Of a stretch of DNA of 32,000 bases, positions 2,461 to 28,800 are shown piece by piece; the first letter of the stretch is position 1; each line of letters starts with the position of its first letter. The notes beneath the pieces were generated by a model. That model worked only from the letters and a program-made list of their open reading frames with translations, did no database searches and was not told the origin of the DNA. A program made the translations under genes and the position numbers. The DNA is taken from contig JAIZWK010000001.1 in NCBI GenBank assembly GCA_021498095.1, positions 3,150,001-3,182,000 of the forward strand. The letters run 5' to 3'. The DNA comes from Candidatus Harpocratesius repetitus. Lineage in GTDB: Archaea > Asgardarchaeota > Lokiarchaeia > Sigyniarchaeales > Promethearchaeaceae.

Positions 2461-3732
2461 TTATCCTTTATTTTTAGTTATACACCACCATTCTTGCTGT
2501 GGTGTGAGAAAAAATTTACATCCATTCTGAGTAATTTGAATCATCTCTTCCAAAGAGACAATACCGTAGTGTGCAGTCTTTACTTCTAATTCTAAGGTAA
2601 AAACATTATCTATTTCTATTATTCCTTTTGGTGCTTCTCCATAACGTTCCCAAAGAGGACCTAATAATATACCACCGTCATGAGCAGCAGTACCAACTTG
2701 ATGACCTAAAGCATGACCGAATTCTTCATAACCTTGGGAGGTTACATATTTTCTGGCAATTTCATCAACTTCAAACCCTCGTACACCAGGATGAATAAAT
2801 TCTGACGCTTTTTTTATTGCTGTTTTAACAGTTTCAAAAGCGTGAATCAATTCCTCTGGGATTTCATCTTTAGTTCCGAAAAACCACATGCGTTGAATAT
2901 CGGAGCAGTATCCATGATATTTCACCCCAAAATCATTATGAAGAGTATTATGTAATTTTGTTATTTGTGTTGAAAGAGGTCCTGTATGACCAACAACTTT
3001 ATCTGGGCCTGCATCAACCATTGGACAATGCTCCGCCAACCATGCATGAGATACACCGTATTTTTGCATCTCTTGCTGAAACAAATCATAAATTTCAGTT
3101 TCTGTCATTCCAATTGAGATCTGGGAAGAAATGGAATGATTGATTTTATCTGTAATTTGACATGCTTCATTTATAAAAGCGATTTCATTAGAAGTTTTTC
3201 GTCCTCGCAATTTTTGGATAATTTTTTCTGCAGATTGAAAGCGATCGACAAATTCAGGTAGCATTTTTTTTAAAACTTCAAAAAGACCGTGAGATAATCC
3301 ATCAGCTACAACATCAGTTTCAGAATAATTTAAAGCAATAGATTTTGGATTTAGTTGATTTAAAAAAGGTTGTAATATTGCTGAAATTCCTTTTTTATAT
3401 CCAATTACTTCATCCCAAATACCTTTTCTTTGTTGAGCAGGGACATCAAAATTACCAACAATTGCAGTTTTTCTAAATTTATTATCTTTATTAGAAAAAA
3501 TAAAGGCAGAAATCCAAACTAATTCACCACTGATTACCAAATTCTGAATAGGATCGGGATTTGAAGCTGTTTCACGAACAACAATCATCCAGCACTCAAT
3601 ATTCTCTTCCTTCATAATTTCTGCGACTTGTTGATGCTTTTCTCGAATTATTATAATATTTTCAGCAATGGTGAGTTTACTTTCATCAATTTTTTTAGAG
3701 ATATTCATAAAATTACCCATATTCTTTTCCAT
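2461..3732 (-). CDS. M24 family Xaa-Pro aminopeptidase
   Basis: Metal-ligand motifs HNDFG, YCSDIQR, FGHALGHQVG..AHD, FTLE and SLEE; creatinase-like N-domain. Confidence 0.9.
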   Translation of the reverse strand: MEKNMGNFMNISKKIDESKLTIAENIIIIREKHQQVAEIMKEENIECWMIVVRETASNPDPIQNLVISGELVWISAFIFSNKDNKFRKTAIVGNFDVPAQQRKGIWDEVIGYKKGISAILQPFLNQLNPKSIALNYSETDVVADGLSHGLFEVLKKMLPEFVDRFQSAEKIIQKLRGRKTSNEIAFINEACQITDKINHSISSQISIGMTETEIYDLFQQEMQKYGVSHAWLAEHCPMVDAGPDKVVGHTGPLSTQITKLHNTLHNDFGVKYHGYCSDIQRMWFFGTKDEIPEELIHAFETVKTAIKKASEFIHPGVRGFEVDEIARKYVTSQGYEEFGHALGHQVGTAAHDGGILLGPLWERYGEAPKGIIEIDNVFTLELEVKTAHYGIVSLEEMIQITQNGCKFFLTPQQEWWCITKNKG

Positions 3733-8679: not shown

Positions 8680-9123
8680 TTATTTCTTTGGAAGATGAAG
8701 GACTTTTTTCATTATTTCATCTGATTTTTGCAAATCTTGGAGAATTTCAGAAGAAATACTTGCCAAATCGGGTAAACAATCTTTAATTGTCGGGTAATTT
8801 ACAATTACAGGAATGAAATGCTTACGCATTCGAACTATATTTTGCCCCATGCGTTTAGCAACAAGAACTCTAACATCTTCCTGTTTCATTGTTTTCGAGA
8901 CATTAAAGGCTTTAATTGGATCACCATGCCGGCTCTCTTCTGGTGTTATATTTGGAATTGTCTTCAGTAATTTAATTTCATTATTTGTTAAATTCCACTT
9001 ATAAATCAGAAAAAACTTGCACGATCCGAAATGTTCGTCAGAAAATGTAGATTTATCATCAGTTCCGATGGCTACATTAATTATTTTGGTATTTTGTTCA
9101 GATTGTGGGTTAAAATCATTCAT
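8680..9123 (-). CDS. NifB/NifX (dinitrogenase Fe-Mo cofactor biosynthesis) family protein
   Basis: VAIGTDD.....EHFGSCKFFLIY, HG motif and VRVLVAKRMG match the NifX/NifB-like fold pattern. Confidence 0.8.
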   Translation of the reverse strand: MNDFNPQSEQNTKIINVAIGTDDKSTFSDEHFGSCKFFLIYKWNLTNNEIKLLKTIPNITPEESRHGDPIKAFNVSKTMKQEDVRVLVAKRMGQNIVRMRKHFIPVIVNYPTIKDCLPDLASISSEILQDLQKSDEIMKKVLHLPKK

Positions 9124-9208
9124 TTATTATTCTCTCAAATTTGTTATTTGCTTAATTTTCATTAATTATTATTTCCTGTACTTCAATGATTTTGTGACAA
9201 TTTTTTAC

Positions 9209-9224
9209 TGATCAAACTTGATCA
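9209..9224 (+). repeat. 16-bp repeat copy A (TGATCAAACTTGATCA), candidate right end of the element
   Basis: Exact reverse complement of 21798-21813. Adjacent hairpin AACCAG/CTGGTT at 9224-9243. Confidence 0.7.
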
Positions 9225-9381
9225 ACCAGTATCACTGCTGGTTATTTTTATTAATAGGTCCCTGCTATATAAATGTTATGAAAAAAATTGAAGCCGAATT
9301 GCCGCAATCATGCCTAAATACCACTGATTTTGAATAGTTAAAGCGGGAAAATATATTTTTCAATTAATCATATAAAATGAA

Positions 9382-12300
9382 TCATGGAGGTGGTTTTTCC
9401 TCCTCAATATTGGATGGTGGCGGCATATCCGATGCTTCATCTTCATGCTGCTGCGATTCTTGTTTGGATTTTTCATGCTCGGTTTTCTGACTAATGATTT
9501 GATTCCATTTTTTAAGCCAACCTGCTTTGCTAAGTTTTATTTTACTTCTTTTATCCTTTTCTACAAATGAGTAAAATGTGTGAATTTGCTTAAATGTTTG
9601 ATAGATCGGCTCAAATGGTGAATCAACCGTAATTGGATCGGTGAATTTTACTTTATCTGCTTCATTCTTGAGATAATTGAAAATGTCTTTTAGTTCCATA
9701 TTTTTTACTTTGGATGCATTGTAAATAATACCTGATTTTGCGGCATTTAAAACGGTTTCCCGCTCCTTGTTAGATAATTCACGCCAATCAAACCATTCCA
9801 GCGAACCGTATGGATGATAACTGCCGAAGGATGTATCCAAAACCTTAAGCAAACCGCTTAAAAGTTTATTTGTCCACTTTTTCATAGATTTTGAATTTCT
9901 TTTTCCTGTATTTTTGTATCTATCAATCTGCAAATTTACCGTTTCTTCAAAATATTTCAATTTATTATATCTGGCAATGTTGTAAGCGCCGTTAACATCT
10001 CGATCGACGATAAATTTTTCTGCTTTTGGTTTTTCATCATTTTCAGATTTAACTATATTTTCATAAAGAAACGTATTTCCTTGAGAAGCATGGATAAAGT
10101 CAATATTAGTATTATTTTCTTTAGAATTAAAGTATTCATTACATAATTCGATTATTTTTGTAGGAACCGAAAAATTATACTCGTATTTATCAGGATTTTT
10201 CGAAATAAAGGAAGCAAATTCATTAAAATTGGCAGTATATCCCGGTCCTTTTACAGGAAATATCCTATTTTTATGAAAAACCATGAGAAATCCTTTTTTA
10301 CCTTCGGTTCCGCTTATGCTCAGTTTTGAAGTATAGGCTGCAGGAACATATCTCACATTTATTCCCTTCATGCTTCCCATTTCTTGGGTGTAATCAGGTA
10401 GTAAGCCGCGAAGCCATCGGGCTTTTTCAAGAGCAAATGATTCACCTTTGGTCGCTTTATACTTCCATAAGCTTTCAAAATTGATTCGGGAATGCATTTT
10501 GAAAATATTTTTGATAAATGATGAATTAGGATTGTTTTCGTCTATGAAAAATTGAGATCCAACAGAAGGCCAAAGATTCTGTATATACGATATTACCGAT
10601 TGCTTTAAATCTTCATTTTGCAGACAGTGATTAATTGATGCTTCAGAAGAACGGAAAACAGCACGGGACAAATTATGGGCGATGTTTCGGTTTAATCTGG
10701 TTGATTTACTATTTATTGAGCGCTTCATGTATGATTTTTTAAGTAAATATTTTGAAGCCCTAACACATTTTTTAACTTTTTTAACTTTAAACCGATTTTC
10801 TACACGATTTTTTTTCTGCTGAAATAGTGCAGCCGTTTTTACAGTATTATTTGAATGTTTTATCAAATTTCTCTGTTCAAAATTCTTTCTGGCTGTATAT
10901 TCTGATAGAGAGATTTCGGTATTATTTAGAGTTTTAATTTTAATTTTATCGGTTGATAAAAATTTATTCTGTGGTTGAAAATAGATCTGCAGTTCATAAG
11001 GGCTACGCAGTCCAAGATCAACTCCTGTCGAAATATAGCCGGGCATTTTTGAATGAATACGCGGCCGCAAGAATTTAAATGGATGATAAATGCGAATATC
11101 TCCGTTAGGTTTTACCTGCAAAAGAGGTGTCGAAAAAGGGGCAAAACCATAAAAATTACCTTCGACAAGTGGATTTTCTGAAGATTTGGAAGGCAGTTTA
11201 TTCTTTCCCAAAGCATTAATCAAAATTTTAGGATAAATTTTTGAAATGAATGAGTAAAATTTCCAAGTTTCAGTTGTTGCCTTAGAATTTAAAAAAGGTT
11301 TTGGAAAAATAATTAGTTTTTGCCAAGCGCTTTTCTCTTTTTCATCTTTAATTTTATCGGTTTCTTTCAGAAATTTATTACCTAAATAATTGACATAGTC
11401 AATGAAAGATAAGTTTTGAACATTTTTATCACCAGGAAATACTTTAAGAAATTTCTGCAATTCCGGAACGATAATATCTTTATATTTGATTAAAACTTCT
11501 TTTTTGTATTTATAGGGCGCTTTGGGATCGATTAAGCCCTGCATGATTCGAAAATTGATTAAAAGTGGTTGAATTCGATTTAGTAAAACTTTGCTTGAAA
11601 AATTGGATTTATTGATTATTTCGGATAATTCTTTAATAATTTGCTTTAATGCTTGAAAATTAATCAAATACTGCTGAATAGAATTATCTAGTTTTGAATC
11701 CAGTATGTCGAAATTTTGATTTTTAAAGTTTATATAATCGCTATATTTTATTTTCAAGATTTTTTTTCCAAGATTGCTTAATACATTATTTATTTTCTTT
11801 TCCGTTTCATCCAAATTTTGTTTTTTAGCTTTAAAACTTTTTTTAATGCTTGAAATTTTCTTTTTAACTTTATTTTTTAAATTTTCAAATTTTTTATTTT
11901 GTTTTTCAATTTTATCAATTTCTTTAGAAAGATCTACTTTTTCGAATGGATCTAATGATTTTAGTAAAGAGATCGGCATTAATAACGGATGGGATTGTTC
12001 TAAACTTTTTACGGGAAAAATCATGGGCATTAAATTCTTTATTGTAGTGCTTATTTCTTCAATTTTTGTGAATTTTACCAAAAAAGGCACACCAGTTCTT
12101 TTCTGGTGAAAATAAAACCATTTAATATGTTTTTCGTTAACTACCATTTCTTTAACTTGAGGAAGATTTAGATTGAAGAATTTATCCCATTCTTCCTGCA
12201 GATGAAAATCTCCTTTGGATATATTGATGGGTGAACATAATATTAGATAATCACGATTTGGTCCAGGCTCAGTTTTTCCTTTTGGTAATAAATAAAGCAG

Positions 12301-15300
12301 ATAGTAACGAAGAAGTTCATAAGGCTCTGATGCATTTTTTACCTGTATTAAGAAGTATGAAGAATCATCTTGGGGTAACCGCACAGTTGCGCTGAAATCT
12401 TTGTAGACGGGCCATTGATCGGGAGGATACAAAATATATTTTGCATAAATTTGGAAATAACTGAGATCTGAAGCGGGAGGTCCTTTTTGAACAACTTCAC
12501 GCATCATTGTAAATAATTCTTTGATAGGATCGGTATTTTTTGGTTTTGGATTGTCTAAATAATTGTCTTCATATTCTTGTTTCAGTTCAACCGCCAAATT
12601 TTTATAATCTTCAGTTAGGTCGGGTAATTTAGTAAATTCACCATCTCTTTTGAATTTCGAAAGCAGTTTTTTCAAATAATTAAATGACAGAGTGATATCT
12701 TCCGTCGATTCAACCGAAAATTGGAACACGGTTTGAAGTATTGATATAATTTTTATTAGAGTGTCTGCCTTATTTGTCTGTATCTTTGTTGGTGTTGTCT
12801 GCCATTCTTCAGCATTATTAGATTTTTCTAAATGACTCTTTAACAATTCTTGAACATCGTTTTTAGATTTTGATCTGAAAACTAGCCTAGAAAGATTTAA
12901 TGCGGGAAATTTACCAAACGAATTATTTTTATCACCCTTTTCAGCCTTTTTTTCATAGAACCAGACTGTTGGGGATATTGACAAGAGATTTAATCCTTTA
13001 ACACCGTATTTTTGAATCCAACCTGTAAAGCTGGGATTATTTTCTAAAGATTTGGTGGATTCATAAGAAAGCGATTTGATTGGATTCTTCTTTTCGATAT
13101 TGTTATTAACATAATTAGTTTTTGCAGATCTTTTAGGTTTGAAACTTGGATTTAACCACAAATTCTTCCATTTTATCAATGAATTAGTTGAAACAGGTGG
13201 AAAATAATTTTCATTTTGGAAATTTAATTCAAACTTTTTTAGTATCCGCATCATTCGCGCTTCTGTAATCCACATTTTCCACATTTTTCCAATTTTTGGA
13301 GAATATGCAAATTTATTGGGATGATTAATCTGCTGAATTACTGCATATGCACTCAAATTTAATTCTTGAGTAAATATCCCGCATACATTGGTATATATTC
13401 TGTTCCAGCTGAGTTTTTCGGTATATGAGAGTTGATTACATTTGGTATTAATAGAATCAATAAATGAATTCGCTTCTGAAATATCCTTATTATAATCCTG
13501 CAGTATTTGTTCTTCATTAAGTGAATTTGGAGCGAAAATACCCGATTTGCCGAACACTAAAAATGTTTCCTTTAAATTTCCAAATATTTTGATAAAAGAA
13601 AATTTAGTTGAAGTTTCATCATTTGTTAATACTTTGTTTGGAATTTGAGATAAATAGGTTTGAATTCGTTTCACCGCTTCAGCTCTATGTAAAAACCATT
13701 CAGATCGGGCAATTTTACATGTTCGTTCATCAATATAATAATGGGATGATTTTCTTTTTATATTCCAAGAACCTTTTCTTGCAGGAGTGAACAGTGCTTT
13801 CAATTCATTTGAAATATTTTTCTTAAATTTATTAAATTGTTCTGCAATATTTATTTTGTTTAATTTTAATAAATTGAGATTTTTTGAATACTCTGAAAGA
13901 TAATTTTGATAAGATTCGCTGTATGTTAAATTATGCCTTATAAAATTGATAAATCTGTAAAAATGTACGTATTGACAATAAATATCCGAAGAATATTTAG
14001 TATAATGGTCTTTTAAGACATCTGCCATTGATTTTAGCACTAAATGGTTCAGTTTTAACTCAAATGAGTAATAATCACTGTTAATTTTCAGCTGAGCAAT
14101 ATTTGAAACGGCGGTGGCAGAAATCTCTTTCACAAAATCTGCCAATTTGTAATTTTTATTCCGCAATTCTTGAGGATCGGTGGATTTAAAGGTGGAGGGT
14201 AATTGAAACACCGTATCTTTAGGATCTGACAAATTATCTTTTTGGTTTTGTTCTTTTTCGTTTTCATCCTCGTCTTCAGTAGATCCATTATCAAAATCAA
14301 TTTTATCAAAATTGCTTAATGTATTCAGTGTTTTGTTAAATGCATCGAACGATCCATCTTCTAAAGCCGCTTGAATCAATTTTTCAAGATGATCAAATCT
14401 TTCTTCCGCTGCACTTGAAACTGCATTATTATTTTGAGAATTTTCTGATCTATAATGCAAATTATCAAAAACCAAGCTCGAATCCGCATTTTCAAATAGA
14501 ATCTGAAATTCTTCGCTATATTTTTCAATCATATCTTTATATAATTGAATTTGGGAATATTTTCCAGATTCAGAAATCGTAATCCTGCAGGGAGGTTCTT
14601 TGTCAAGTTCTTCGCATGATTTTTGGGCGTCTTCTTGAGTATAGATGTAATACGATCGCTTGCTGTGCTGATTTTTTGCAAAATATCCGAAAATTGAATC
14701 TTTCCAAGCAGTTCGAAAAGCTCGTAAAATCATATCCGCAAATTTTTTCTGATTTTCCTTTAATATTCTTTTTCTAAAATCACCATTTTCTAATCCGTTT
14801 ATTTCAGTTTGAAAAATGCCGAATACTTTTAAAGCAAACCTGTTAACTTGTGCGAGTATTATTTCTGCTTCTGCTTTTAGAGGTTCTAAACAAGCTTCCA
14901 ACCTTTTAACATGCCATTCTGCATACTCTTGTGTTTTTTTATTATCTGGAGCAGTATCTATAGGTAGTTCAGAACGCTTTGCTTTATTTATTTTTATACC
15001 CAAATATTTGTCTGAAGGTCGGATCAGCGGTGAGGCAAACAGCAGATCAATAAAATTTCGAATGGTCGAAAAGAGCGGGGTTTTAAATCTTAATTTATTA
15101 AATGATTCTTGATATTCCTGCAGTGCATCCGCCAAATTCTTTCGTTTTTCATAATATTTTTGAGGATTTTTTAAATATTCTATTGTATCGCTGAAATTAG
15201 ATAAATCTATGTTATAATATTGATAACTTAAATGTTTTATAAATTCTTTCTTTTCTTTTTCTGTAAAAGACAATTTTTGAAGAGAATTTAATGTAAAATT

Positions 15301-18210
15301 TGATAATCCTTTCTTTTTATCATGATCACTAGATCTTAATATTAAACTCGGAAATTCGAATATATTCCCGACCTTTAAACTTAAAGTACGGGTTTGAATG
15401 GTCCACGTGATTGGCAGTGCCTGCGGTGTCCAGTTAAATGGCGGTTTTAAAACGTCTCGAACGGCTGGATCGATAATATGTATATAATAATTCTTCAAAT
15501 TAGAAATGTTGTATAGTTGTTTTAGGGTGATCTCCGAAGCTTTAGGATGAAGAACCATTCGATTTGAAGGTTTGTGATAAATAAATATGTCTACGGCTTT
15601 ATGGGGTGGAAGTCTGAGTGCTTGTCGAACTTCATTTGAATTAAAAAATTCTTTTGCCGATCGATTTCCCGAGAAAATGCCTGAACCTTTATCAATTATC
15701 ATTTGACTGATTTTTTTGCACGCTTGATAAAAATCTTTAGAAGATCTATCATAATGTGGAAATATTGAAAAAATTAAATCATGGTGTTCATAAAGATGGC
15801 TGAATTTTCGAACTAGCACAGGTGAATACATGAATCTTTTTTGATCGATATATGATAAGTCATTTTGCAATACTAACCAATGATTTCCTCCTTTTTTACA
15901 TAATTCATTAATCTGATATAATGATTTATTATTTAGATCGACCTGTTTAATAGTGTATTCTGCAGTATCATTCAAAAAACGCTTTAAATAAAAATTAATC
16001 TGAGGTTTAGTTATTCGCATACCCACTTTGAAAGTTTTCATTAAGTCTCGTATTAAGTGGGTGCGATTCCAAGCAGGGTGTCCGAGTTTAGGTGTTAATT
16101 TTACCAGAGAATATTTAATGGTACTTCCTAACATTAATGGTTGAAGCAGCAGTTGAATGTTAGGTAGTTGGATAAATTCTTGAAATTTCATATCTTTCGT
16201 ATCTGGATGAAATCCTGTTCTACGTAAGGTTCGTATAAATTTCTCAAAAAGAGAAGGATTAGTATAAGGTGAATCTAGAAGCACTGCATTAAATTTCCGT
16301 GATTTAGGAGGATAAAAAAGGTTTTCTTTCCTCAATTTGTAATGTTTTATGAATGAAATATCATGAGTGAATGGTTTTGGGCCTTTACCAAAGTGTTCCC
16401 AAATTGCTCGTGCTTGAGGTGCTAATTCGGGTAATATTTCATAGTTGATTAAATCTATTGTGAGAAAAATTACAATTATCATTTGAGAATAAAAGACAAA
16501 ATCACGGAATAGTTTATATGGAAGATGCATATAATGTAGTGGTATATGGTCAGAATATGATAATTCGTAGTGTTTTCTTACAAAAAACCGCATTTTTCCA
16601 ACATCAGGATAAATAAGACGACTCATTGGTCCATTTACATAATCCCTCCATTCTTGGCTGTATAAAGCTTTACCTTCATAAGGATTCGGTTTCCCTTGAA
16701 TTCGAGCGAAGATTCCTTTAATAAATTTCATAAACAACCGTTCTGATTCCCATTTAACCAATTTCCAATCCACATATTTTTTTTCGAAATAGCGGATAAT
16801 TTGCTGTACATCTTCTTTAGAATACTTCGCTTCAGGTTGAACCGCTTGAAAAATACTGCACGGATATATTTTGAAGGGAATCTTTTTGGCGCGCAGAAAT
16901 CTGATTATGGTTGGAATCACATTAGGCATATTCGGATTTGTCATATCTAATTTCGGTTTTATACGGAAAGCATTCCAACCATGGCGAATTCCAATATGTA
17001 ATGGGGAAAAACACGTTAAATAAAAAGGATCTGAATCGGCGTATTTATCTGCCCAATCTTGCATAATCCATTTATTAAGAAAAATTTCATGATCTCTTGG
17101 AACATAAAATCGAATTAACCACGGTGGATTATAGTATCCATGAAATTTCTTGGAAAGAAACTCTACATCTATCGAATATTCTTGTTGAATTTTGAAATTT
17201 TTTTCATTAAAAACTTGAATATGTTGAGTTCTACCTCTTCCCCATGTATATTTACCACATTCAATTTCCTGCTCAATTTTTATCCATTTCAAAGTTCGCT
17301 TTTCTTCCTTTTTAGTAAGACGGGGATAATAAAGATCCGGGATGTCAAACTTTTTTCCTAAACGGAAATCAAGATACATTCGATAAACATGCTCTAATTT
17401 ATACGGAATAATGGGAATTTCGGAATCATTTTTCGCTAAAATTCGGGTATTATCATCTTTAATCCATTTTTTTAGTTTTTGTTCTTTCGCATTCAAAATT
17501 CGTTTTAACTTAGAAGGAATCCGTTTATCTCCCGGTTTTCGAAAGTTACGTTTAGACATGACGGTGGGAGGACGGGACTTGGGCATCATCCTTTTTCTTC
17601 TTCTGTTCCAATATGATTCCAAAGCATCTCGAGAAGAAAAAACTCGATATTTAAAGACTTGCTTCTTAATAGAACGTTCCAACCAGTATCTTTTTTTAGG
17701 GGAAAGCCCAAATTTGCGCATATAAGGCCCGTGAAAATGATTTTTCAATTGTCGAGTTATCTTTTTACGTTTTTCTAATTGTGCCCTTTCAAAATGTTTT
17801 TCTTCCAACCATCTCCGATTGGTATGTTTTCCAGGTTTTTTCCAATCTGGATGACGAGGGTTAATTAAATCACCGTATACATTGTAAACTCTACATCTTT
17901 GGGAATTTTTTGTCAGTTTATCTGGACTTCTTCGTTTGCATATTTTTAAATGGGGGGTAGGTAACATAGAAAGAGGTAACTTTTTCTTTAATGTATAATA
18001 GTCTATTTTTTCCCTATCCGGAATAGTTCTTTCTATTAATCCATAAGGAGTTTTTTTAATAACCGTCTTTTCATTCGGGCTGGGAGGGACTAACAAACGT
18101 GCAATATATTGAAATATATGATCTTTTTTTTCGATTTTTTTAATAAATGGTTCTTCAGTCATTTTTAGCTTCCCTACGCGTATTTCTTTATTGGTTGAAG
18201 TATTTACCAA
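9382..18210 (-). CDS. Giant (~2,926-2,942 aa) protein with a C-terminal TnpB/Cas12-like RuvC nuclease domain
   Basis: RuvC-I GVDLGLRSP (D2398, nt 11019-11017), RuvC-II INFESL (E2579, nt 10476-10474), GINVRYVPAAYTSK, RuvC-III DRDVNGAYNIAR (D2738, nt 9999-9997). The track start is TTG 18210; ATG 18162 after AGGGAAG is a likelier start. Confidence 0.85.
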   Translation of the reverse strand: MVNTSTNKEIRVGKLKMTEEPFIKKIEKKDHIFQYIARLLVPPSPNEKTVIKKTPYGLIERTIPDREKIDYYTLKKKLPLSMLPTPHLKICKRRSPDKLTKNSQRCRVYNVYGDLINPRHPDWKKPGKHTNRRWLEEKHFERAQLEKRKKITRQLKNHFHGPYMRKFGLSPKKRYWLERSIKKQVFKYRVFSSRDALESYWNRRRKRMMPKSRPPTVMSKRNFRKPGDKRIPSKLKRILNAKEQKLKKWIKDDNTRILAKNDSEIPIIPYKLEHVYRMYLDFRLGKKFDIPDLYYPRLTKKEEKRTLKWIKIEQEIECGKYTWGRGRTQHIQVFNEKNFKIQQEYSIDVEFLSKKFHGYYNPPWLIRFYVPRDHEIFLNKWIMQDWADKYADSDPFYLTCFSPLHIGIRHGWNAFRIKPKLDMTNPNMPNVIPTIIRFLRAKKIPFKIYPCSIFQAVQPEAKYSKEDVQQIIRYFEKKYVDWKLVKWESERLFMKFIKGIFARIQGKPNPYEGKALYSQEWRDYVNGPMSRLIYPDVGKMRFFVRKHYELSYSDHIPLHYMHLPYKLFRDFVFYSQMIIVIFLTIDLINYEILPELAPQARAIWEHFGKGPKPFTHDISFIKHYKLRKENLFYPPKSRKFNAVLLDSPYTNPSLFEKFIRTLRRTGFHPDTKDMKFQEFIQLPNIQLLLQPLMLGSTIKYSLVKLTPKLGHPAWNRTHLIRDLMKTFKVGMRITKPQINFYLKRFLNDTAEYTIKQVDLNNKSLYQINELCKKGGNHWLVLQNDLSYIDQKRFMYSPVLVRKFSHLYEHHDLIFSIFPHYDRSSKDFYQACKKISQMIIDKGSGIFSGNRSAKEFFNSNEVRQALRLPPHKAVDIFIYHKPSNRMVLHPKASEITLKQLYNISNLKNYYIHIIDPAVRDVLKPPFNWTPQALPITWTIQTRTLSLKVGNIFEFPSLILRSSDHDKKKGLSNFTLNSLQKLSFTEKEKKEFIKHLSYQYYNIDLSNFSDTIEYLKNPQKYYEKRKNLADALQEYQESFNKLRFKTPLFSTIRNFIDLLFASPLIRPSDKYLGIKINKAKRSELPIDTAPDNKKTQEYAEWHVKRLEACLEPLKAEAEIILAQVNRFALKVFGIFQTEINGLENGDFRKRILKENQKKFADMILRAFRTAWKDSIFGYFAKNQHSKRSYYIYTQEDAQKSCEELDKEPPCRITISESGKYSQIQLYKDMIEKYSEEFQILFENADSSLVFDNLHYRSENSQNNNAVSSAAEERFDHLEKLIQAALEDGSFDAFNKTLNTLSNFDKIDFDNGSTEDEDENEKEQNQKDNLSDPKDTVFQLPSTFKSTDPQELRNKNYKLADFVKEISATAVSNIAQLKINSDYYSFELKLNHLVLKSMADVLKDHYTKYSSDIYCQYVHFYRFINFIRHNLTYSESYQNYLSEYSKNLNLLKLNKINIAEQFNKFKKNISNELKALFTPARKGSWNIKRKSSHYYIDERTCKIARSEWFLHRAEAVKRIQTYLSQIPNKVLTNDETSTKFSFIKIFGNLKETFLVFGKSGIFAPNSLNEEQILQDYNKDISEANSFIDSINTKCNQLSYTEKLSWNRIYTNVCGIFTQELNLSAYAVIQQINHPNKFAYSPKIGKMWKMWITEARMMRILKKFELNFQNENYFPPVSTNSLIKWKNLWLNPSFKPKRSAKTNYVNNNIEKKNPIKSLSYESTKSLENNPSFTGWIQKYGVKGLNLLSISPTVWFYEKKAEKGDKNNSFGKFPALNLSRLVFRSKSKNDVQELLKSHLEKSNNAEEWQTTPTKIQTNKADTLIKIISILQTVFQFSVESTEDITLSFNYLKKLLSKFKRDGEFTKLPDLTEDYKNLAVELKQEYEDNYLDNPKPKNTDPIKELFTMMREVVQKGPPASDLSYFQIYAKYILYPPDQWPVYKDFSATVRLPQDDSSYFLIQVKNASEPYELLRYYLLYLLPKGKTEPGPNRDYLILCSPINISKGDFHLQEEWDKFFNLNLPQVKEMVVNEKHIKWFYFHQKRTGVPFLVKFTKIEEISTTIKNLMPMIFPVKSLEQSHPLLMPISLLKSLDPFEKVDLSKEIDKIEKQNKKFENLKNKVKKKISSIKKSFKAKKQNLDETEKKINNVLSNLGKKILKIKYSDYINFKNQNFDILDSKLDNSIQQYLINFQALKQIIKELSEIINKSNFSSKVLLNRIQPLLINFRIMQGLIDPKAPYKYKKEVLIKYKDIIVPELQKFLKVFPGDKNVQNLSFIDYVNYLGNKFLKETDKIKDEKEKSAWQKLIIFPKPFLNSKATTETWKFYSFISKIYPKILINALGKNKLPSKSSENPLVEGNFYGFAPFSTPLLQVKPNGDIRIYHPFKFLRPRIHSKMPGYISTGVDLGLRSPYELQIYFQPQNKFLSTDKIKIKTLNNTEISLSEYTARKNFEQRNLIKHSNNTVKTAALFQQKKNRVENRFKVKKVKKCVRASKYLLKKSYMKRSINSKSTRLNRNIAHNLSRAVFRSSEASINHCLQNEDLKQSVISYIQNLWPSVGSQFFIDENNPNSSFIKNIFKMHSRINFESLWKYKATKGESFALEKARWLRGLLPDYTQEMGSMKGINVRYVPAAYTSKLSISGTEGKKGFLMVFHKNRIFPVKGPGYTANFNEFASFISKNPDKYEYNFSVPTKIIELCNEYFNSKENNTNIDFIHASQGNTFLYENIVKSENDEKPKAEKFIVDRDVNGAYNIARYNKLKYFEETVNLQIDRYKNTGKRNSKSMKKWTNKLLSGLLKVLDTSFGSYHPYGSLEWFDWRELSNKERETVLNAAKSGIIYNASKVKNMELKDIFNYLKNEADKVKFTDPITVDSPFEPIYQTFKQIHTFYSFVEKDKRSKIKLSKAGWLKKWNQIISQKTEHEKSKQESQQHEDEASDMPPPSNIEEEKPPP

Positions 18211-19408
18211 AATATTTTAAAAATAAACTATACTGAGAATTTTTAATATCACCATAAGAATGATTATATTCAGAAATAGTAAATTCTAATTTGTTTTTAT
18301 TAGTTATATTAAAATTTCTGATAGCAGACAAGATATGTTCCTGAGTTACTTTTTCAGATTTTTGTTCAATAGCGTTTATTTTTGCCAATTGAATTAGGTG
18401 TTTTAGATCCGCTCCAGAAAATCCATCCGTTTCTAGTGAAATTTCATGAATATTGACTTCCTTTGGAACATCTATAAGCATTTGTTCAATGATCAATGAT
18501 CTCGAAGATTGATCTGGTTGAGGGATGAAAACTTGCATACTTAATCTTCCAGGTCTAAGTAAGGCTGAGTCAACCAGATCCTTACGATTTGTGGCACCAA
18601 TAACAAATATATAATTATTAATAATTTCGTTATATTCGAGATTATTTTTTTCATGTGAATTTTCTAAATCAATTTCATTAATTTTTTGTTCATCAATGGT
18701 TGAAGATCTATTTTGATTGGGTAATCTGTTCATTTCAATTAGCAATTGGGTAAACATACGATCAATTTCAGCTGATTCTCTACTTTGACCCCTTTTTGGA
18801 CTTAGTGATTCTATTTCATCTATAAATAAAACTATAGGAGCATTGTTCCGGCAGTATCTAAAGACCCGGGAAATATTTCGGGCTGATTCTCCTACAAGAG
18901 AATTTACAATATCACTAGGGGTTATTACCAGTAAAGGTAATTTCATGTAAGCTGCTAAAGCAGAAGCCAACATGGTTTTCCCGCAACCTGGCGGACCTTC
19001 GAATAATATGCCTGTAGGAAGTTGCAATTTTAATTTTGAAGCAATTTTCCTATATTCGGGATTGGAGATAGGAAGACAAATTTCTTTGATCAATCGATTT
19101 TTAATTGTTTCAATTCCTGCAATATCATTCATTTGGTAAGGATAAGGTTTAGTGACTCCATCATACAATATACCTATTGGTGGTAGATCTTTTTGGGAGA
19201 TTATCTCTATAATTTCATCGTGCTTTTCGTCCACTAAAACTAAATCATGAATTTTTACAAGAATCTTTTCAGGTTTTGGAAATGCAATCCGAATTCCGTT
19301 CAATTCAACTATAATTTTTGTTTTAAACAATTCAATTACTGTTCCAACAGATGTAGGAACAGAAGCTGGATTGCTCTGCAAACGCTGGAAAAATTTTTTC
19401 ATCATCAT
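18188..19408 (-). CDS. AAA+ ATPase, PAN/Rpt/CDC48-like single AAA module with an OB-like N-domain
   Basis: Walker A GPPGCGKT, Walker B LFIDE, SRH ATNRKDLVDSALLRPGRL, GFSGADL. The N-terminal VGTVIEL..KIIVE...LVLVD..EIIEII..LP resembles the PAN OB domain. Confidence 0.85.
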   Translation of the reverse strand: MMMKKFFQRLQSNPASVPTSVGTVIELFKTKIIVELNGIRIAFPKPEKILVKIHDLVLVDEKHDEIIEIISQKDLPPIGILYDGVTKPYPYQMNDIAGIETIKNRLIKEICLPISNPEYRKIASKLKLQLPTGILFEGPPGCGKTMLASALAAYMKLPLLVITPSDIVNSLVGESARNISRVFRYCRNNAPIVLFIDEIESLSPKRGQSRESAEIDRMFTQLLIEMNRLPNQNRSSTIDEQKINEIDLENSHEKNNLEYNEIINNYIFVIGATNRKDLVDSALLRPGRLSMQVFIPQPDQSSRSLIIEQMLIDVPKEVNIHEISLETDGFSGADLKHLIQLAKINAIEQKSEKVTQEHILSAIRNFNITNKNKLEFTISEYNHSYGDIKNSQYSLFLKYFGKYFNQ

Positions 19409-19676
19409 ATACTAGATGCGACACTCTGAAAACCTTTAAATATGGTCTTCAAAAAGTGCAAAAATTCCTGTCAAAGTTAGAAAAAATATTACAATTTATA
19501 TATTTTTGATTTACAAAAACAAGGTTGCATTATTTAATCACTCCAAAATGTGGTTCAAAAATTCTTGATTTAAATATGTTTACTATTCAAATATATTGGG
19601 CAGTAATAAAGTGCCGATTGTAAAATAAAGAAGGTTAGAGAATAAGCATATTAACTGATCTATACTAATTCTCTCA

Positions 19677-19771
19677 GCTGACTCAAGAATTATGAAATAG
19701 ATCGTAAAAATGGAATATATGAACCCTAATATCTCGTTAAGTGCGAGATTTTCGTTTCATATTGAGTTAGC
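19677..19771 (+). ncRNA. Candidate structured non-coding RNA inside the element
   Basis: Closing stem GCTGACTCAA (19677-86)/TTGAGTTAGC (19762-71) with one G.U, stacked TATGAAA (19691-97)/TTTCATA (19755-61), and inner hairpin ATCTCG/CGAGAT (19731-49). Confidence 0.4.
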
Positions 19772-19892
19772 ATAAAAAAACAGTGGATATTAGGTCTATT
19801 ATATCAAAAATTCGAATTATAGAACCATTTACAGGAATTTTATAGATCAAAACAGCGAAAAACTTAAATTATCTGACTCCAATTATTATTTC

Positions 19893-20915
19893 ATGACCGT
19901 TCTACTCAGATCAAGAAAAAAGTTGACCTGTTGTTCGGATCCAAAAATTAAAAATGTCGATGGATTTCGCACATGTGTTAATTGTGGAACAGTCGTGGAA
20001 AGAATACAAATAGCTGAACAAAATTTTTCACAATATGAAATTCTTCAGAAATTTTCTCAAAAAAAGCGAAAGGTTTCTTTAGTAGAAAAGAAAATTTTAG
20101 AATTTAATCCTGTAATACCACGAACATTACAAATGTATCAATCGATTCCGAACAGAAGAATTTTGTCAGGTTATCCTGCGAAATGTATAATTGCAGCTAT
20201 CGGCTTTTATCAATGCGAACATATATTTTTCAGAGAACAAAATTGGTCAATCAAAGATCTTTTTCTAATCAGCCAAATTTACGGAAAAATTGGAGGAAAA
20301 GGACCAATTGCTCAAAATTTTATGTATCAAATTCTGAGCAATTTACAGAGCCAAAATACGAGCAAAAATGAAAAGAAATATGCTCTAAGAATATTGAGAC
20401 ATTATTACAAGAGATTACTTCTGCTCAGCAAAGATAATAACGAATTAAGGCATTTTGTAGATCTTTCCCAAAATCTAATTACCTCTAAAAATTTCAGTTT
20501 TTTTATTGGAATTGCAGAAAAAATTATAAATAAACCAATTCCGAATGCCCTTGGTAAAAAAGAGATTTCTAATTCAATTTTTTATAAAATTAAACGTTGG
20601 ATTTCGCTTAAAACCCAAGAGTTTCGAATTTTTTTCTTGAAAATTAAGGATGTACTTAAAAATGTCACTTGCAAACATACTGGGGAGCAAACTTGGCATT
20701 ATAACAATTTTGTCAATAATTGCTCTAGTTACCATTTTTGTAGTAATAAAGCGGAAAAGAAAAGCTCTAAACCTGAACTTCTTGTCCAGAAAAAAAGAAG
20801 CACCTCGACTACTATCACAAAATTTAAATTCTTCTCGCATGGCTCAAGCAAGATCAGGTATACAAATTATATCGAAGCGCGTTTTGCGCCGCAGAATGTA
20901 ATAGGAGGTTCATAG
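19893..20915 (+). CDS. TFIIB/TFB-like protein (Zn ribbon plus partial cyclin-like repeat)
   Basis: N-terminal CCSDP...DGFRTCVNCGTV matches the TFIIB zinc ribbon. ILSGYPAKCIIAAIGFYQC resembles the cyclin-fold G....iaAa.lY.aC motif. The rest is divergent. Confidence 0.55.
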   Translation: MTVLLRSRKKLTCCSDPKIKNVDGFRTCVNCGTVVERIQIAEQNFSQYEILQKFSQKKRKVSLVEKKILEFNPVIPRTLQMYQSIPNRRILSGYPAKCIIAAIGFYQCEHIFFREQNWSIKDLFLISQIYGKIGGKGPIAQNFMYQILSNLQSQNTSKNEKKYALRILRHYYKRLLLLSKDNNELRHFVDLSQNLITSKNFSFFIGIAEKIINKPIPNALGKKEISNSIFYKIKRWISLKTQEFRIFFLKIKDVLKNVTCKHTGEQTWHYNNFVNNCSSYHFCSNKAEKKSSKPELLVQKKRSTSTTITKFKFFSHGSSKIRYTNYIEARFAPQNVIGGS

Positions 20916-20917
20916 AG

Positions 20918-21325
20918 ATGTTAAATATTGGGGCATTAGTGTCCATGGCTGGCGGCGGCAATCCGATAGTTCCTATAGTTCTATTGGGAGGATTAGAAAT
21001 TGGAGGATTTCTGCTATTCAAGAAGATTAATCCTTTAAATAAAGTAAAAGCTTTATTTAGCAGAATGAAAGAAAAGGCAAATAAACGCCGAGAAAAAAGA
21101 AAAGAAGAATTCAGAAAATTCGGAGCACGTACAAAAAGTGATCTGGCAAAAGCTAAAAAAGCGCCCGCAGTTGATACAATTTGCCCGAAAACGACGCAAT
21201 CAGCGCCATCAAATCCGTCACCAGCTGTTCCTCCAAAGAAGTATTCAATCCACGCTCCACCTCGATTATCGGCACATCGTAAATCCCACAAACATATTCC
21301 AGAAATGGAAACCCGAATCTTGTGA
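20918..21325 (+). CDS. Small hypothetical protein with an N-terminal hydrophobic helix and a basic segment
   Basis: Starts 2 nt after the TFB-like stop. IVPIVLLGGLEIGGFLLF is followed by a K/R-rich stretch. The last 173 nt overlap tnpA on the opposite strand. Confidence 0.45.
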   Translation: MLNIGALVSMAGGGNPIVPIVLLGGLEIGGFLLFKKINPLNKVKALFSRMKEKANKRREKRKEEFRKFGARTKSDLAKAKKAPAVDTICPKTTQSAPSNPSPAVPPKKYSIHAPPRLSAHRKSHKHIPEMETRIL

Positions 21326-21755
21326 GCCGATCCTTATATGCAATCAGCACCCGTGCCACCTTCCTCTGCTCAATTTGCTTCAACAGCCGCCACAATCCTC
21401 TGCGCATCGGATTCAAGCCTGAACCGTATTCTTTAATAATTTTTGCAGGTGATTCATCAGTAAAATGCTTTTTGTGATATTTTTTCAATCGTTCGACCTG
21501 TCTGTCAAGATTTCCATCTTTCTTTTGTTTGGCGGATGAGACTCTGGCATAAATATAGGTCGATTTTACAGTTTCTTCTGCTGGTTGGCACGGTAGATTA
21601 ACCGATTCGGGCAGAAAATCCACCAATTGTTCCCATGAATACCGTCGGTGATTTCCAAATGTCCTTTTAGGAACGAGGTATCCTTTTTTATCCCATCTGC
21701 GTAGAGTTGCAGGAGTAACTCCAAGAAGGCGTGAAGTTTCGGAAATAGTCAGCAT
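21153..21755 (-). CDS. tnpA: IS607-family transposase TnpA (MerR-type HTH plus serine recombinase)
   Basis: MLTISETSRLLGVTPATLRRWDKKG...GNHRRY HTH; catalytic YARVSS; EYGSGLN; KDRLTRFGF; C-helix LVTDLMALIASFSGKLY. Confidence 0.95.
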   Translation of the reverse strand: MLTISETSRLLGVTPATLRRWDKKGYLVPKRTFGNHRRYSWEQLVDFLPESVNLPCQPAEETVKSTYIYARVSSAKQKKDGNLDRQVERLKKYHKKHFTDESPAKIIKEYGSGLNPMRRGLWRLLKQIEQRKVARVLIAYKDRLTRFGFPFLEYVCGIYDVPIIEVERGLNTSLEEQLVTDLMALIASFSGKLYQLRALF

Positions 21756-21775
21756 AGAATTAAATTTGGGGAAGA

Positions 21776-21785
21776 TATATATAAA
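21776..21785 (-). promoter_or_regulatory. Archaeal TATA box for tnpA
   Basis: TTTATATATA on the minus strand, 20 nt upstream of the tnpA ATG, consistent with a leaderless archaeal transcript. Confidence 0.55.
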
Positions 21786-21797
21786 TTAGGCGATCAA

Positions 21798-21813
21798 TGA
21801 TCAAGTTTGATCA
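21798..21813 (+). repeat. 16-bp repeat copy B (TGATCAAGTTTGATCA), candidate left end / TnpA-binding site
   Basis: Reverse complement of 9209-9224. Flanked by an extra half-site CGATCA (21791-96) and a degenerate copy TGATAAGTTTTATGATA (21830-46). Confidence 0.7.
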
Positions 21814-21856
21814 AAAATTTTTTTGCTGTTGATAAGTTTTATGATAGTCAATTCTT

Positions 21857-22654
21857 TTATTTAAATAATTTCTCAATATAATTAAAGAGAAAATCAAATG
21901 GAACACCTCTTGAACTAATATTCCAGATTTTTTTTTTAGGATCAACTGATCGAATTACTAAATATCGATCATTTTCAAGATATTTTTCGGTTCGTTGAAA
22001 TAGTTGAAAATTTGAAAATCTCAATTCAGATTCAATTTTTAACTGTAAAGCAGGAAAAATTATATCATCATGATTTTTTAAAATTGGTTCATGATTTTTC
22101 ATAGTTCTTTCTATAATGATTTTCATCTCAGGAAATTGAGAATAAATTTTTTCTTCTTCATCTATAAAAGTTAAATCGAAATTGGAAACTTCCCAAAATA
22201 ATGGAGATTTTTTTTCGTTTTGAAAACAATTAGGATAGCAATATGAGTAGAATCTTTTTTCCATGATTTCTTCAATTAATTTAGAAAGTTGGTTAGTTTT
22301 CTGAGATATTTCTTTCCATTCTTCATTTGTAAAATCAATTCCCCGGATATTTATATCAAAATAATACCCATTTTGACCAAATCCTAAATTTATATGATCA
22401 ATCATTTGATCAAGCAAGTTATCATTCATTTTTATGAATTCAAAGCGAAATGTGGGATGAATTCTTCCAAGAACTCTATTTTGAGCAGGTTTTTTATAAT
22501 AAGGTATATCCGTCTGGCAATTTAAATTAGTTTCAATAATGGATTTAATGTCCTTCAAATTATTTCCAAATTCTTCAATTTTATATTGAGGTGAATGCCA
22601 TACTTTTATTTTTCCAACAATAAAAGGACTTTCTGATAGAATTTTCATATTCAT
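21857..22654 (-). CDS. Hypothetical protein
   Basis: 265-aa open frame with no recognised motif. Confidence 0.6.
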   Translation of the reverse strand: MNMKILSESPFIVGKIKVWHSPQYKIEEFGNNLKDIKSIIETNLNCQTDIPYYKKPAQNRVLGRIHPTFRFEFIKMNDNLLDQMIDHINLGFGQNGYYFDINIRGIDFTNEEWKEISQKTNQLSKLIEEIMEKRFYSYCYPNCFQNEKKSPLFWEVSNFDLTFIDEEEKIYSQFPEMKIIIERTMKNHEPILKNHDDIIFPALQLKIESELRFSNFQLFQRTEKYLENDRYLVIRSVDPKKKIWNISSRGVPFDFLFNYIEKLFK

Positions 22655-25810: not shown

Positions 25811-28800
25811 TTAAGATGCTATTTTTCTTCTTTTTTGGAACAGATATACCATAAAGAGCGAGCAAAAAGTGCTAATTATAAGTAAACTCAGCGAATATCC
25901 AGGAATTGAAGAAAAAGGACTAGTGAATGGTGACTCATCATCTGAAGTATTATCACTAGACGTATTAGATGTATCATCGCTTGTGTTTGTTGTATCATCA
26001 GTTGTTGTATTTGTAGTATCATCAGTTGTAGTATTAGTGGATGTTCTTTCAACAATTTCAACACTAATATTTGAAATCCCGGTCAAACCTTCTTTTGTAA
26101 AGAAATAAATGCCAATTTCATATACTCCAGGATTCCAATTGATTATTAAATAAGAGATTTGTTGCTCATTCTGATATATTCCGGTTATAAGAGTTTTAGA
26201 TTCAGATAATTCAATGATTTGATATGATGTTGGAGTATAACCTTCAGGAACATGTGGAATCCACCAAATTGAGGCAGAACTATCTTCATATAAAATAACA
26301 TCATCAGATTTTGTTATTTCAAATTCAGGAAATGGAAAAATTTCTACTGTGATATTACAAAAACCTGTAACATTCTCGACTGTATAGAAATATGCCCCTA
26401 TGCAGTAAAGTCCAGGACCCCAACCGGTCATGTCGAAATATACCGTAGTACCATTGGAATAACTCGAGTCTCCACCCAATATTGTGCCACCACCCCATAC
26501 ATCAACTATTTCATAATATGTGGGAGTCAAAACTCCGTATAAATATGGTGTCCATGAAAGAATTAAGGTTTGGTTGAAATATACTGAGATATATGTAGGT
26601 TGTTCAATAAAGATTTTTGGAACTGAAACATCAAAAATCTCCACCGTGATATTGCAAAATCCAGTGACATTCTCAGATGTATAGAAATATGCTCCAATGC
26701 AGTAAAGTCCAGGACCCCAACCGGTCATGTCGAAATATACCGTAGTACCATTGGAATAACTCGAATTTCCAGCTAATATTGTGCCACCACCCCATACATC
26801 TACGATTTCGTAATTAGTAGGAGTCAAATCTCCGTATAAATACGGTGTCCATGAAAGAATTAAAGTATCATTAACATTGGCAGAGCGATAAGTTGGTTGT
26901 TCAACATAGATTTCAGCGCTTGGAACATCAAAGATCTCCACCGTGATATTGCAAAATCCAGTAACATTCTCAACTGTATAGAAATATGCTCCGATACAGT
27001 AAAGTCCAGAACCCCAACCGGTCATGTCGAAATATACAGCAGTACCATTGAAGTAACTCGAATCTCCACCTAATATTGTGCCACCACCCCAAACATCTAC
27101 GATTTCATAGTTTGCAGGAGTCAAAGCTCCGTATAAATACGGTGTCCATGAAAGAAGAAGTGTTTCATTGAAATTAGCTGATAAATAGGTTGGTTGTTCA
27201 ATATAGATTTTTGGACCCGAAACATCAAAAATCTCCACCGTAATATTACAAAAACCTGTGACATTCTCGACTGTATAGAAATATGCACCAATGCAGTAAA
27301 GTCCAGGACCCCAACCGGTCATGTCGAAATATACAGCAGTACCATTGAAGTAACTCGAATCTCCACCTAATATTGTGCCACCACCCCAAACATCTACGAT
27401 TTCATAGTTTGCAGGAGTCAAAGCTCCGTATAAATACGGTGTCCATGAAAGAATTAATGTTTCATTGAAATTAGCCGATAAATAGGTTGGTTGTTCAACA
27501 TAGATTTCAGCGATTGGAACATCAAAGATTTCAACAGTAATATTACAAAAACCTGTGACATTCTCGACTGTATAGAAATATGCTCCGATGCAGTAAAGTC
27601 CAGGACCCCAACCGGTCATGTCGAAATATACAGTAGTACCATTGAAGTAACTCGAATCTCCACCTAATATTGTGCCACCACCCCAAACATCTATGATTTC
27701 GTAATTTGCAGGAGTTAAAGCCCCGTATAAATACGGTGTCCATGAAAGAATTAATGTTTCATTGAAATTAGCCGATAAATAGGTTGGTTGTTCAATATAG
27801 ATTTCAGTGTTTGGAACATCAAAGATTTCAACTGTAATATTACAGAAACCTGTGACATTCTCGACTGTATAGAAATACACACCAATGCAGTAAAGTCCAG
27901 GACCCCAACCGGTCATGTCGAAATATACCGTAGTACCATTGAAGTAACTCGAATCTCCACTTAATATTGTGCCACCACCCCAAACATCTATGATTTCGTA
28001 ATTTGCAGGAGTTAAAGCCCCGTATAAATACGGTGTCCATGAAAGAATTAATGTTTCATTGAAATTAGCCGATAAATAGGTTGGTTGTTCAATGTAAATA
28101 GAATAATTGACTGCTTCAACATGAATAATTTTAGATGTTGAATTCACATCACCATCATTATCAGTAATTGATAATTGAACAATAAAATCTCCTGAATTAT
28201 TGAAAATATGAGTCGGATTTGCTAAATTTGAAAATTCTCCATCTCCAAAATCCCAATGATATTCTGTAAAAGGTTGGTTTCCACGAGTCGTTAAATCGGT
28301 AAAACTTACAGTATCATTTACTTTAACATTGATAGGATCATAGGAAAAATCAACTTGTGGAATGTTATCTGGTGTATTTGGATCAGTATTATAAATGAAT
28401 ATTTCATCTCCATCATAGAGTTCATCTCCATCACTATCAGGATTTGCAGGATCTGTATTATATACGTTTAGTTCATCTCCGTCAAGAAGATTATCTGAAT
28501 CAGTATCAGGATTAAGCGGATCAGTATGGGTTGAAATTCTTTCAATTGTTCTATCGGAACTTGGAAAATTATATAGGGTGCCGTCATAACCATTCTCACT
28601 CTGATCATGACAAATATCTCCGGTAGTATTTTCAAAGTCATAATATAGAACCATATCATCCGCAGGATTTGTATTATTCTTTAAATCAATTATCTCACTT
28701 AATGATAATTCTCGATTATAAATTCGAAATTCATCAAAATAAAATGTAGCAAAGTATTTTGCTGATCCCAAAGAATTTTCGCATCCAATATATAAAGGAC

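Follow-up and report, generated by a model that had tools for sequence, protein, structure and literature searches.

The subject of this analysis was a long open reading frame (ORF) on the minus strand of a 32,000-nt stretch of the genome of Candidatus Harpocratesius repetitus (contig JAIZWK010000001.1, positions 3,150,001 to 3,182,000; referred to as the window, with positions counted from its first letter). The frame occupies positions 9382-18210, and its product (P0001) ends in a nuclease core that resembles TnpB and Cas12f. Comparison with homologues confirmed that the residues ahead of this core are those of a genuine protein under selection, although no known domain was recognised in them. 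P0001 is best described as the TnpB of an IS607-type element, enlarged by sizeable, so far unexplained accessory modules and partnered by an AAA ATPase, and the most conserved part of its front (module A, residues 233-952) was also found in proteins that carry no nuclease. Unless stated otherwise, all features of the window lie on the minus strand.

An earlier note on this DNA, made from the letters alone, had described an uninterrupted frame of about 8.8 kb with some 2,400 unrecognisable residues fused to the nuclease, and had taken its length as a sign of selection. The frame is stop-free over 8,829 nt and holds 2942 codons when counted from the TTG at 18210. The GC content of the window is ~31%, at which stop codons are expected at roughly 8% of random codons (own arithmetic), and chance is therefore excluded for 2,942 open codons. 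The source genome consists of one 4.36-Mb contig, and the closest homologue (P0002, 2,981 amino acids, from an unrelated metagenome) is collinear with residues 30-2941 of P0001 at 42% identity; the frame is thus not the assembly chimera that the earlier note had considered. The proposed selection was borne out by collinear homologues, which share 20-42% identity and stay open over 2,600-3,350 amino acids; because the nearest of them is 42% identical, synonymous sites are saturated. Two Logan contigs (L012 and L013, run SRR15988949) matched window positions 15168-16886 and 12668-14242 with zero substitutions and with only 4 and 2 single-base gaps, respectively, which split the frame into small called genes. 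These breaks are read as homopolymer assembly noise in the same strain and not as pseudogenisation.

The start of P0001 was placed by alignment with P0002 and with three N-terminal fragments (P0005, P0007 and P0010). The probable start codon is the ATG at 18160-18162 (residue 17 of the frame), 25 nt past the stop codon of an upstream AAA ATPase gene, which gives a protein of about 2926 amino acids. The part that could be aligned to the nuclease cores of all relatives begins near residue 2349, so that about 2,330 unrecognised residues lie ahead of it, near the figure first given. The compositional features that had been pointed out were recovered as well: residues 1-300 contain 23-30 Lys and Arg and 5-10 Pro per 100 residues (pI 10.0-10.7), residues 300-700 contain 14-19 Phe, Trp and Tyr per 100, and the acidic linker DNGSTEDEDENEKEQ expected near nt 14240-14290 was located at residues 1307-1321 (nt 14248-14292). 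The Lys-rich stretch of the supposed coiled coil is likewise present and opens with KIEKQNKKFENLKNK (residue 2100, nt 11869-11913), and composition, together with helices predicted at low confidence, hints at the coiled coil itself.

Known domains were sought in the front with sequence libraries and by structure comparison, and none was recognised, which speaks against a simple fusion of familiar parts. Pfam, applied to the whole of P0001 with E values up to 1, gave no domain that explains residues 1-2348, and ten N-termini searched at E up to 10 gave no match, including none to the TnpB N-terminal domain. PHROGs, PADLOC and NCBIfam returned no family for P0001, sequence searches of the PDB (with the module A profile, residues 1-240, residues 953-2350 and the profile of the A3 domain described below) gave nothing below E 0.03, and a feature search of the ESM Atlas with three segments gave no usable match. 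For module A, a structure model of residues 225-960 was prepared with AlphaFold from a 23-row alignment (mean predicted local distance difference test score, pLDDT, 70.3, with blocks at 80-90). Foldseek and VIA searches with this model recognised no known domain: the best hit in the PDB had E 0.3 and the best in BFVD E 0.09, neither being a significant fold match, and the best hit of a shape search in the ESM Atlas had a template modelling (TM) score of 0.19. Two small alpha/beta subdomains of module A gave recurrent yet sub-threshold fold matches, which are treated as leads only.

Relatives of the giant protein are few. When 5.8 billion proteins were searched by word index, P0002 and P0003 (2,743 amino acids, from a Promethearchaeota metagenome-assembled genome) were the only ones to emerge. 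Among 1.84 billion representatives, a profile of residues 225-960 detected 26 proteins, most of them pieces of the giant family cut by contig ends. In addition to P0003, the further giants are P0004 (from the whole-genome search, its frame open over more than 3,352 amino acids) and, both from the profile search, P0009 (2,386 amino acids, N-terminally cut) and P0012 (2,620 amino acids, with a match to the TNB zinc finger). All giant relatives of stated source belong to the Promethearchaeota, and in whole-genome searches of 400 genomes of this phylum the matches were confined to the taxonomic family of the window. Since every match to the nuclease core in these genomes was either an open frame of 2,092-3,353 amino acids or a broken fragment, this nuclease clade appears to be restricted to giant proteins. 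For residues 960-2350, the only shorter stand-alone relative found was a 127-amino-acid fragment of the same strain. A search of the literature available found no paper on giant TnpB fusions in Asgard archaea.

Conservation is distributed unevenly along the front. Two segments alone could be aligned throughout the giant family, module A (233-952) and the nuclease core (2349-2790), and the identity to P0002, calculated per 100 residues, was 51-64% in module A, 28-40% between residues 1100 and 1900, 47-52% between residues 1900 and 2100, and 31-32% in the Lys-rich part. This pattern argues that the front is a composite of a basic tail (17-232), module A (233-952) and a fast-diverging stretch (953-2348), the last of which could be aligned to P0002 alone. 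The basic tail (nt 17515-18162), delimited by composition and by conservation in P0002, P0003, P0005, P0007 and P0010, carries two motifs: a conserved strand-like one of hydrophobic residues that runs into prolines (ARLLVPP), and YN..GD.I.P.HPDW.KP. Module A (~720 residues, nt 15355-17514) is conserved family-wide, with the invariant motifs QA.QPE, FS.FPH, FF...R..LP, Y.HI.DP and RT...K.GN. Its most conserved motif, PFKIYPCSIFQAVQPEA, lies in a small alpha/beta subdomain (residues ~360-457, nt 16840-17133) with a weak likeness to the ferredoxin-like procarboxypeptidase pro-domain, and its end is formed by a domain termed A3 (residues ~735-935, nt 15406-16008), the last ~110 residues of which are weakly ubiquitin-like (beta-grasp); both matches are sub-threshold and serve as leads only.

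Within the fast-diverging stretch, residues 953-1290 (nt 14341-15354) are conserved with P0002 only (35-41% identity), and the acidic linker has an acidic patch of like character at a comparable relative position in P0002 and P0003. Residues 1331-1935 (nt 12406-14220) evolve rapidly, being 29-40% identical to P0002 and without detectable similarity to other members, and are predicted with low confidence to be mostly alpha-helical. They are followed by a beta-rich island (module B, residues ~1939-2046, nt 12073-12396), which is 47-52% identical to P0002, and by the Lys-rich helical, possibly coiled-coil region (residues ~2095-2330, nt 11221-11928), which gave weak coiled-coil-type Pfam matches (DUF1664/PEP_C, E 0.16-0.19). 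The model of residues 1201-2400 (mean pLDDT 32.8) was excluded from the fold search and used for secondary structure only; at this low confidence it is largely helical, with long helices over residues 2095-2330, the beta island (~1939-2046) and a pair of strands immediately ahead of the core.

The earlier note had treated the front as a single N-terminal extension of the nuclease. This did not hold, as residues 233-952 form an independent, portable module that was also found without a nuclease. Two complete proteins, P0014 (1,124 amino acids) and P0015 (1,559 amino acids), contain module A and no RuvC core. The A3 domain, shared with these nuclease-free proteins, also heads Lokiarchaeial proteins of ~480-510 amino acids that end in a toxin-type deaminase (PF14424, 32-33 bits with a cutoff of 29.6). 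Such proteins occur in three genomes of the taxonomic family (L018 2831-4351, L019 3440-4900 and L020 2131-3654) and in 13 protein clusters, five of which carry organism names, all of them Promethearchaeota and including Promethearchaeum syntrophicum and Ca. Lokiarchaeum ossiferum. Residues 735-935 of P0001 align with 17 other A3 sequences (profile motif FP...P..F ... FF....R..F.LP..K ... Y.VHIYDP), and the A3 profile matched in 6 of 14 genomes of the family. P0001 and the deaminase proteins thus have the A3 domain in common (profile E 1e-24 to 1e-36); they differ in that the enzymatic head of the latter is a toxin-type deaminase and not a RuvC nuclease, and in that the latter possess neither the rest of module A, nor a counterpart of residues 953-2348, nor a transposon context. 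PF14424 itself gave no match in P0001 at E up to 1 and was present only in the A3 proteins of about 500 amino acids.

A third arrangement was found in the complete genome of P. syntrophicum (locus L014), where most of module A is a separate gene. A gene of 801 amino acids, which spans positions 53-556 of the module A profile (E 1.7e-110), lies immediately upstream of a nuclease gene of 2,090 amino acids on the same strand; the product of the latter covers module A positions 553-612 in its N-terminal part and ends in the TnpB-like core (core profile E 8.9e-44, TNB 42 bits). This complementary coverage of module A argues for a functional tie between the module and the nuclease. The nuclease belongs to the same clade as P0001 (24% identity over the core), and its gene is followed by a similar 3' hairpin and TGATCA right end; it differs in the separate upstream gene and in having no detectable similarity to P0001 between module A and core (hhalign of residues 1201-2400 against the 2,090-amino-acid protein, probability 0.4%). 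At the junction (L014 9680-9945), a TAA terminates the 801-amino-acid gene; an A10 run comes next, and about 70 further codons in the same frame contain the A3 end motif for a second time (..YFVTIRISDPE). A clean gene fission was rejected on account of this repeat, and the junction may represent a recent nonsense mutation or a duplicated junction. Taken with the nuclease-free proteins P0014 and P0015 and the A3-deaminase proteins, the largely separate gene of P. syntrophicum argues that module A is a portable alpha/beta module specific to the Promethearchaeota and not an outgrowth of the nuclease.

The nuclease core of P0001 (residues ~2349-2800, nt 9811-11166) opens with WED-like strands and contains the catalytic triad D2398, E2579 and D2738, which was aligned and invariant in six family members; D2398 (nt 11017-11019) is the RuvC-I aspartate. 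When compared with the PDB, the family profile of the core matched Cas12f1 with E 2.4e-5 and TnpB with E 7.9e-4. P0001 alone scored 17 bits on PF07282, under the cutoff of 26.3. Ahead of RuvC-I, only ~50 residues, the WED-like strands, could be aligned with the cores of the relatives. The CxxC...CxxC zinc finger (TNB, between RuvC-II and RuvC-III) is kept in P0004, P0009, P0012 and the P. syntrophicum protein. No CRISPR array was detected in the window (TRF and repeat finder), and no cas1, cas2, cas4 or other cas genes were seen among its ORFs.

The element around the giant gene was delimited from its copies. An IS607-family serine transposase gene (tnpA) is present at 21153-21755 (NF033518, 166 bits with a cutoff of 110). 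When positions 8800-22400 were compared with the genome itself by BLAST, many partial copies were found, which stop at 21840 and at 9192-9195; the left end of a 12.65-kb element was placed at ~21840 from these boundaries. Between these ends, and downstream of the transposase gene, the giant gene occupies the tnpB slot of an IS607-type element. A 577-bp derivative resembling a miniature inverted-repeat transposable element (G000:C1:3286568-3287132) joins window positions 21557-21840 to 9194-9486 and consists of the left end and the first 66 tnpA codons, followed by the last 30 codons of the giant gene and the right end. A further deletion derivative retains tnpA and the 3' third of the nuclease gene at 90-94% nucleotide identity and contains stop codons. 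Copies of ~1 kb with tnpA alone (G000:C1:1753119-1754132 and 2352678-2353646, one of them frameshifted) have the same right end at ~75% identity, and the element with the giant gene looks like a cargo-carrying version of this minimal form. The intact giant gene is single-copy in its genome, where a decayed 220-bp piece of residues 1896-1979 was found elsewhere. An empty site was sought in two genomes of the same genus; the genes of the left flank were conserved, and no informative junction was obtained.

The right end of the element (9194-9326) is non-coding and contains a CAGTGG..TTTAGG box, a TATA-like box (TTTATATA), a hairpin and a TGATCA-N4-TGATCA pair. About 135 nt after the stop codon of the giant gene are conserved as DNA at five loci whose proteins share only 20-40% identity (the window, L007 18985-19117, L008 ~18290-18526, L010 ~10010-10260 and L014 ~3075-3405). 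The hairpin CCAG-N8-CTGG becomes CCAC-N8-GTGG in other copies, which amounts to one compensatory pair (G-C to C-G). The similarity ceases sharply at ...TTGTCAC, beyond which the flanks diverge, and the L007 contig stops exactly there. Rfam gave no match.

TnpB is the ancestor of Cas12 and of the eukaryotic Fanzor proteins and is normally compact (~350-550 amino acids, roughly 400), with a short WED/REC front. P0001 and its family resemble an IS607 TnpB in the C-terminal RuvC D-E-D core with sequence similarity to Cas12f and TnpB, in the TNB zinc finger kept by distant members, in the position of the gene downstream of an IS607 serine transposase within an element that has defined ends and decayed copies, and in the conserved structured element that abuts its right end. 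They differ in size (about 2,926 versus roughly 400 amino acids), in the about 2,330 unrecognised residues ahead of the core, which include a portable module shared with deaminase proteins, in the missing zinc finger of P0001, in the cargo of a PAN-like AAA ATPase gene and a 340-amino-acid gene, and in the candidate RNA scaffold, which is very short and comes with a TATA-like box of its own. The large Cas12 proteins are comparable in that P0001 is likewise TnpB-derived and enlarged ahead of RuvC. P0001 exceeds even the largest Cas12b of the 2023 TnpB/Cas12 census (1,888 amino acids, PMC10691335) by roughly 1,000 residues, however, and the mass added is not recognisably REC1, REC2 or PI.

According to the reading preferred here, to which about an even chance is given, P0001 would have kept the activity of a TnpB-type nuclease, with an RNA made from the conserved right end as its guide. 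The stretch 953-2348, always found in one polypeptide with the nuclease, would play a REC-like or scaffold role, and module A would be an adaptor that brings the enzyme to its substrate by binding a nucleic acid, a host protein or a partner protein. The PAN-like AAA ATPase, presumed to be co-transcribed, would remodel or recycle the giant protein. A nucleic-acid-binding or scaffold role of the front, as proposed in the earlier note, is a reasonable guess. Several observations weigh against this reading. The zinc finger is absent from P0001, P0002 and P0003, a loss also known in accepted TnpB branches (PMC10691335). The TGATCA pair recurs at the left end of the element, and repeats conserved at both ends could be transposase sites rather than part of an RNA. 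No IS607 transposase was seen in the sequence examined around P0002, P0003 and P0012, and neither an AAA gene nor a transposase was present within the 15 kb examined in P. syntrophicum. Finally, the helical or REC-like label for residues 953-2348 derives from the secondary structure of the model of residues 1201-2400, which was built from a 5-row alignment (P0002 and three fragments) and has the low mean pLDDT given above.

The association of A3 with deaminases also admits an unlikely alternative, by which module A or A3 would be the constant front (for sensing, delivery or partner binding) of Lokiarchaeial toxin-like or immune effectors, and the TnpB-derived nuclease would have been recruited as an interchangeable head that could do without RNA guidance. 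The position of A3 N-terminal to the PF14424 "toxin-deaminase" in 13 protein clusters fits this account. Leucine-rich repeat proteins flank module A or A3 genes at three loci (L009, L015 and L020, directly following the gene in L020) and an NB-ARC/TPR STAND protein adjoins P0017, which hints at a conflict or immunity setting; the upstream AAA ATPase, moreover, is about as similar to the anti-phage IetA/IteA ATPases as to PAN. Such neighbour associations are few and carry no statistical test, no PADLOC model matched P0001, and no immunity-like gene was identified. The location of the giant gene exactly at the tnpB position of an IS607 element, with a right end conserved family-wide, also argues against it.

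It is quite unlikely that all 2,330 residues are an expanded WED/REC front of TnpB, with the first WED strand at the N-terminus (ARLLVPP) and with inserted REC-like domains that hold the guide-target duplex. The nuclease-bearing members do conserve at their N-terminus a hydrophobic strand followed by Pro and Glu/Lys/Gln, a feature that presumably resembles the beginning of TnpB. Such an expansion would also fit the shortness of the WED-like part ahead of RuvC-I (only ~50 residues) and the known growth of Cas12 proteins through helical insertions (PMC10691335). Module A, however, exists without a nuclease and together with a deaminase, and in P. syntrophicum most of it is encoded by a gene of its own; it is therefore no insertion into WED, and the failure of Pfam to detect a TnpB N-terminal domain also counts against the expansion. 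A complex prediction for the peptide 17-95 and the core 2200-2800, which addressed the placement of the first strand on WED, scored 0.00 and was counted neither way.

Another proposal makes module A or A3 a portable licensing or targeting module, mounted by Lokiarchaeia on either a deaminase or a TnpB-type RuvC nuclease, with the ubiquitin-like A3 as a handle by which the PAN-like unfoldase activates, recycles or destroys the nuclease. It is a long shot; were it true, a transposon-borne RNA-guided nuclease under unfoldase control would be a type of system so far undescribed. Very improbable is a multifunctional structural or replication protein of a virus or element, with a front for virion, replication or partition and a nuclease that processes the element's own DNA: giant proteins are common in large viruses and the AAA-giant pairs of P0002 and P0003 lie beside a conserved block of about eight small genes, where large proteins show hints of C1q and "virion structural protein" similarity. 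The PHROG matches are weak (E ~1e-6, over short stretches), however, and a search with one protein of the block did not find it in the genome of the window. Module A had no fold match in BFVD, and P0001 showed no signature of a polymerase, primase, helicase or capsid protein.

For a TnpB-type nuclease of this kind, several experimental handles are available, namely the conserved 720-residue module that is reused with a deaminase and has no relative detected in the PDB, BFVD or ESM Atlas, the AAA ATPase partner, which looks obligatory, and the compact conserved right-end element. The host taxonomic family includes cultured species. Should P0001 prove to be RNA-guided, the way in which guide-directed nucleases become coupled to other cellular machinery might be learned from its accessory modules.

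The AAA ATPase gene (18188-19408) lies directly upstream of the giant gene and encodes a PAN-like classical AAA ATPase; this order was found at all four fused loci (window, P0002, P0003 and P0012). A gene of 340 amino acids (19893-20915, plus strand) is divergent from the AAA gene and is kept beside the AAA-giant pair in L007 with 38% identity; its product gave only a very weak match to a TFIIB-type zinc ribbon (Rrn7, E 0.08).

The small genes beside P0002 and P0003 form a syntenic block (L007 1-8169 and L008 539-8717), in which about eight genes have no Pfam match. The block also encodes a product of at least 2,422 amino acids with a weak C1q match, as well as proteins of 658 and 483 amino acids with weak matches to the PHROG "virion structural protein" category, and may be a virus-like or large mobile element.

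Elsewhere in the window, the ORF at 25811-30058 encodes a surface-type protein of 1,415 amino acids with PKD, LamG and F5/8-C domains. Six tandem repeats of 297 nt, 82-86% identical to one another, lie within it at 26336-28120, and each repeat gives a jelly-roll-like "Tymo_coat" Pfam match.

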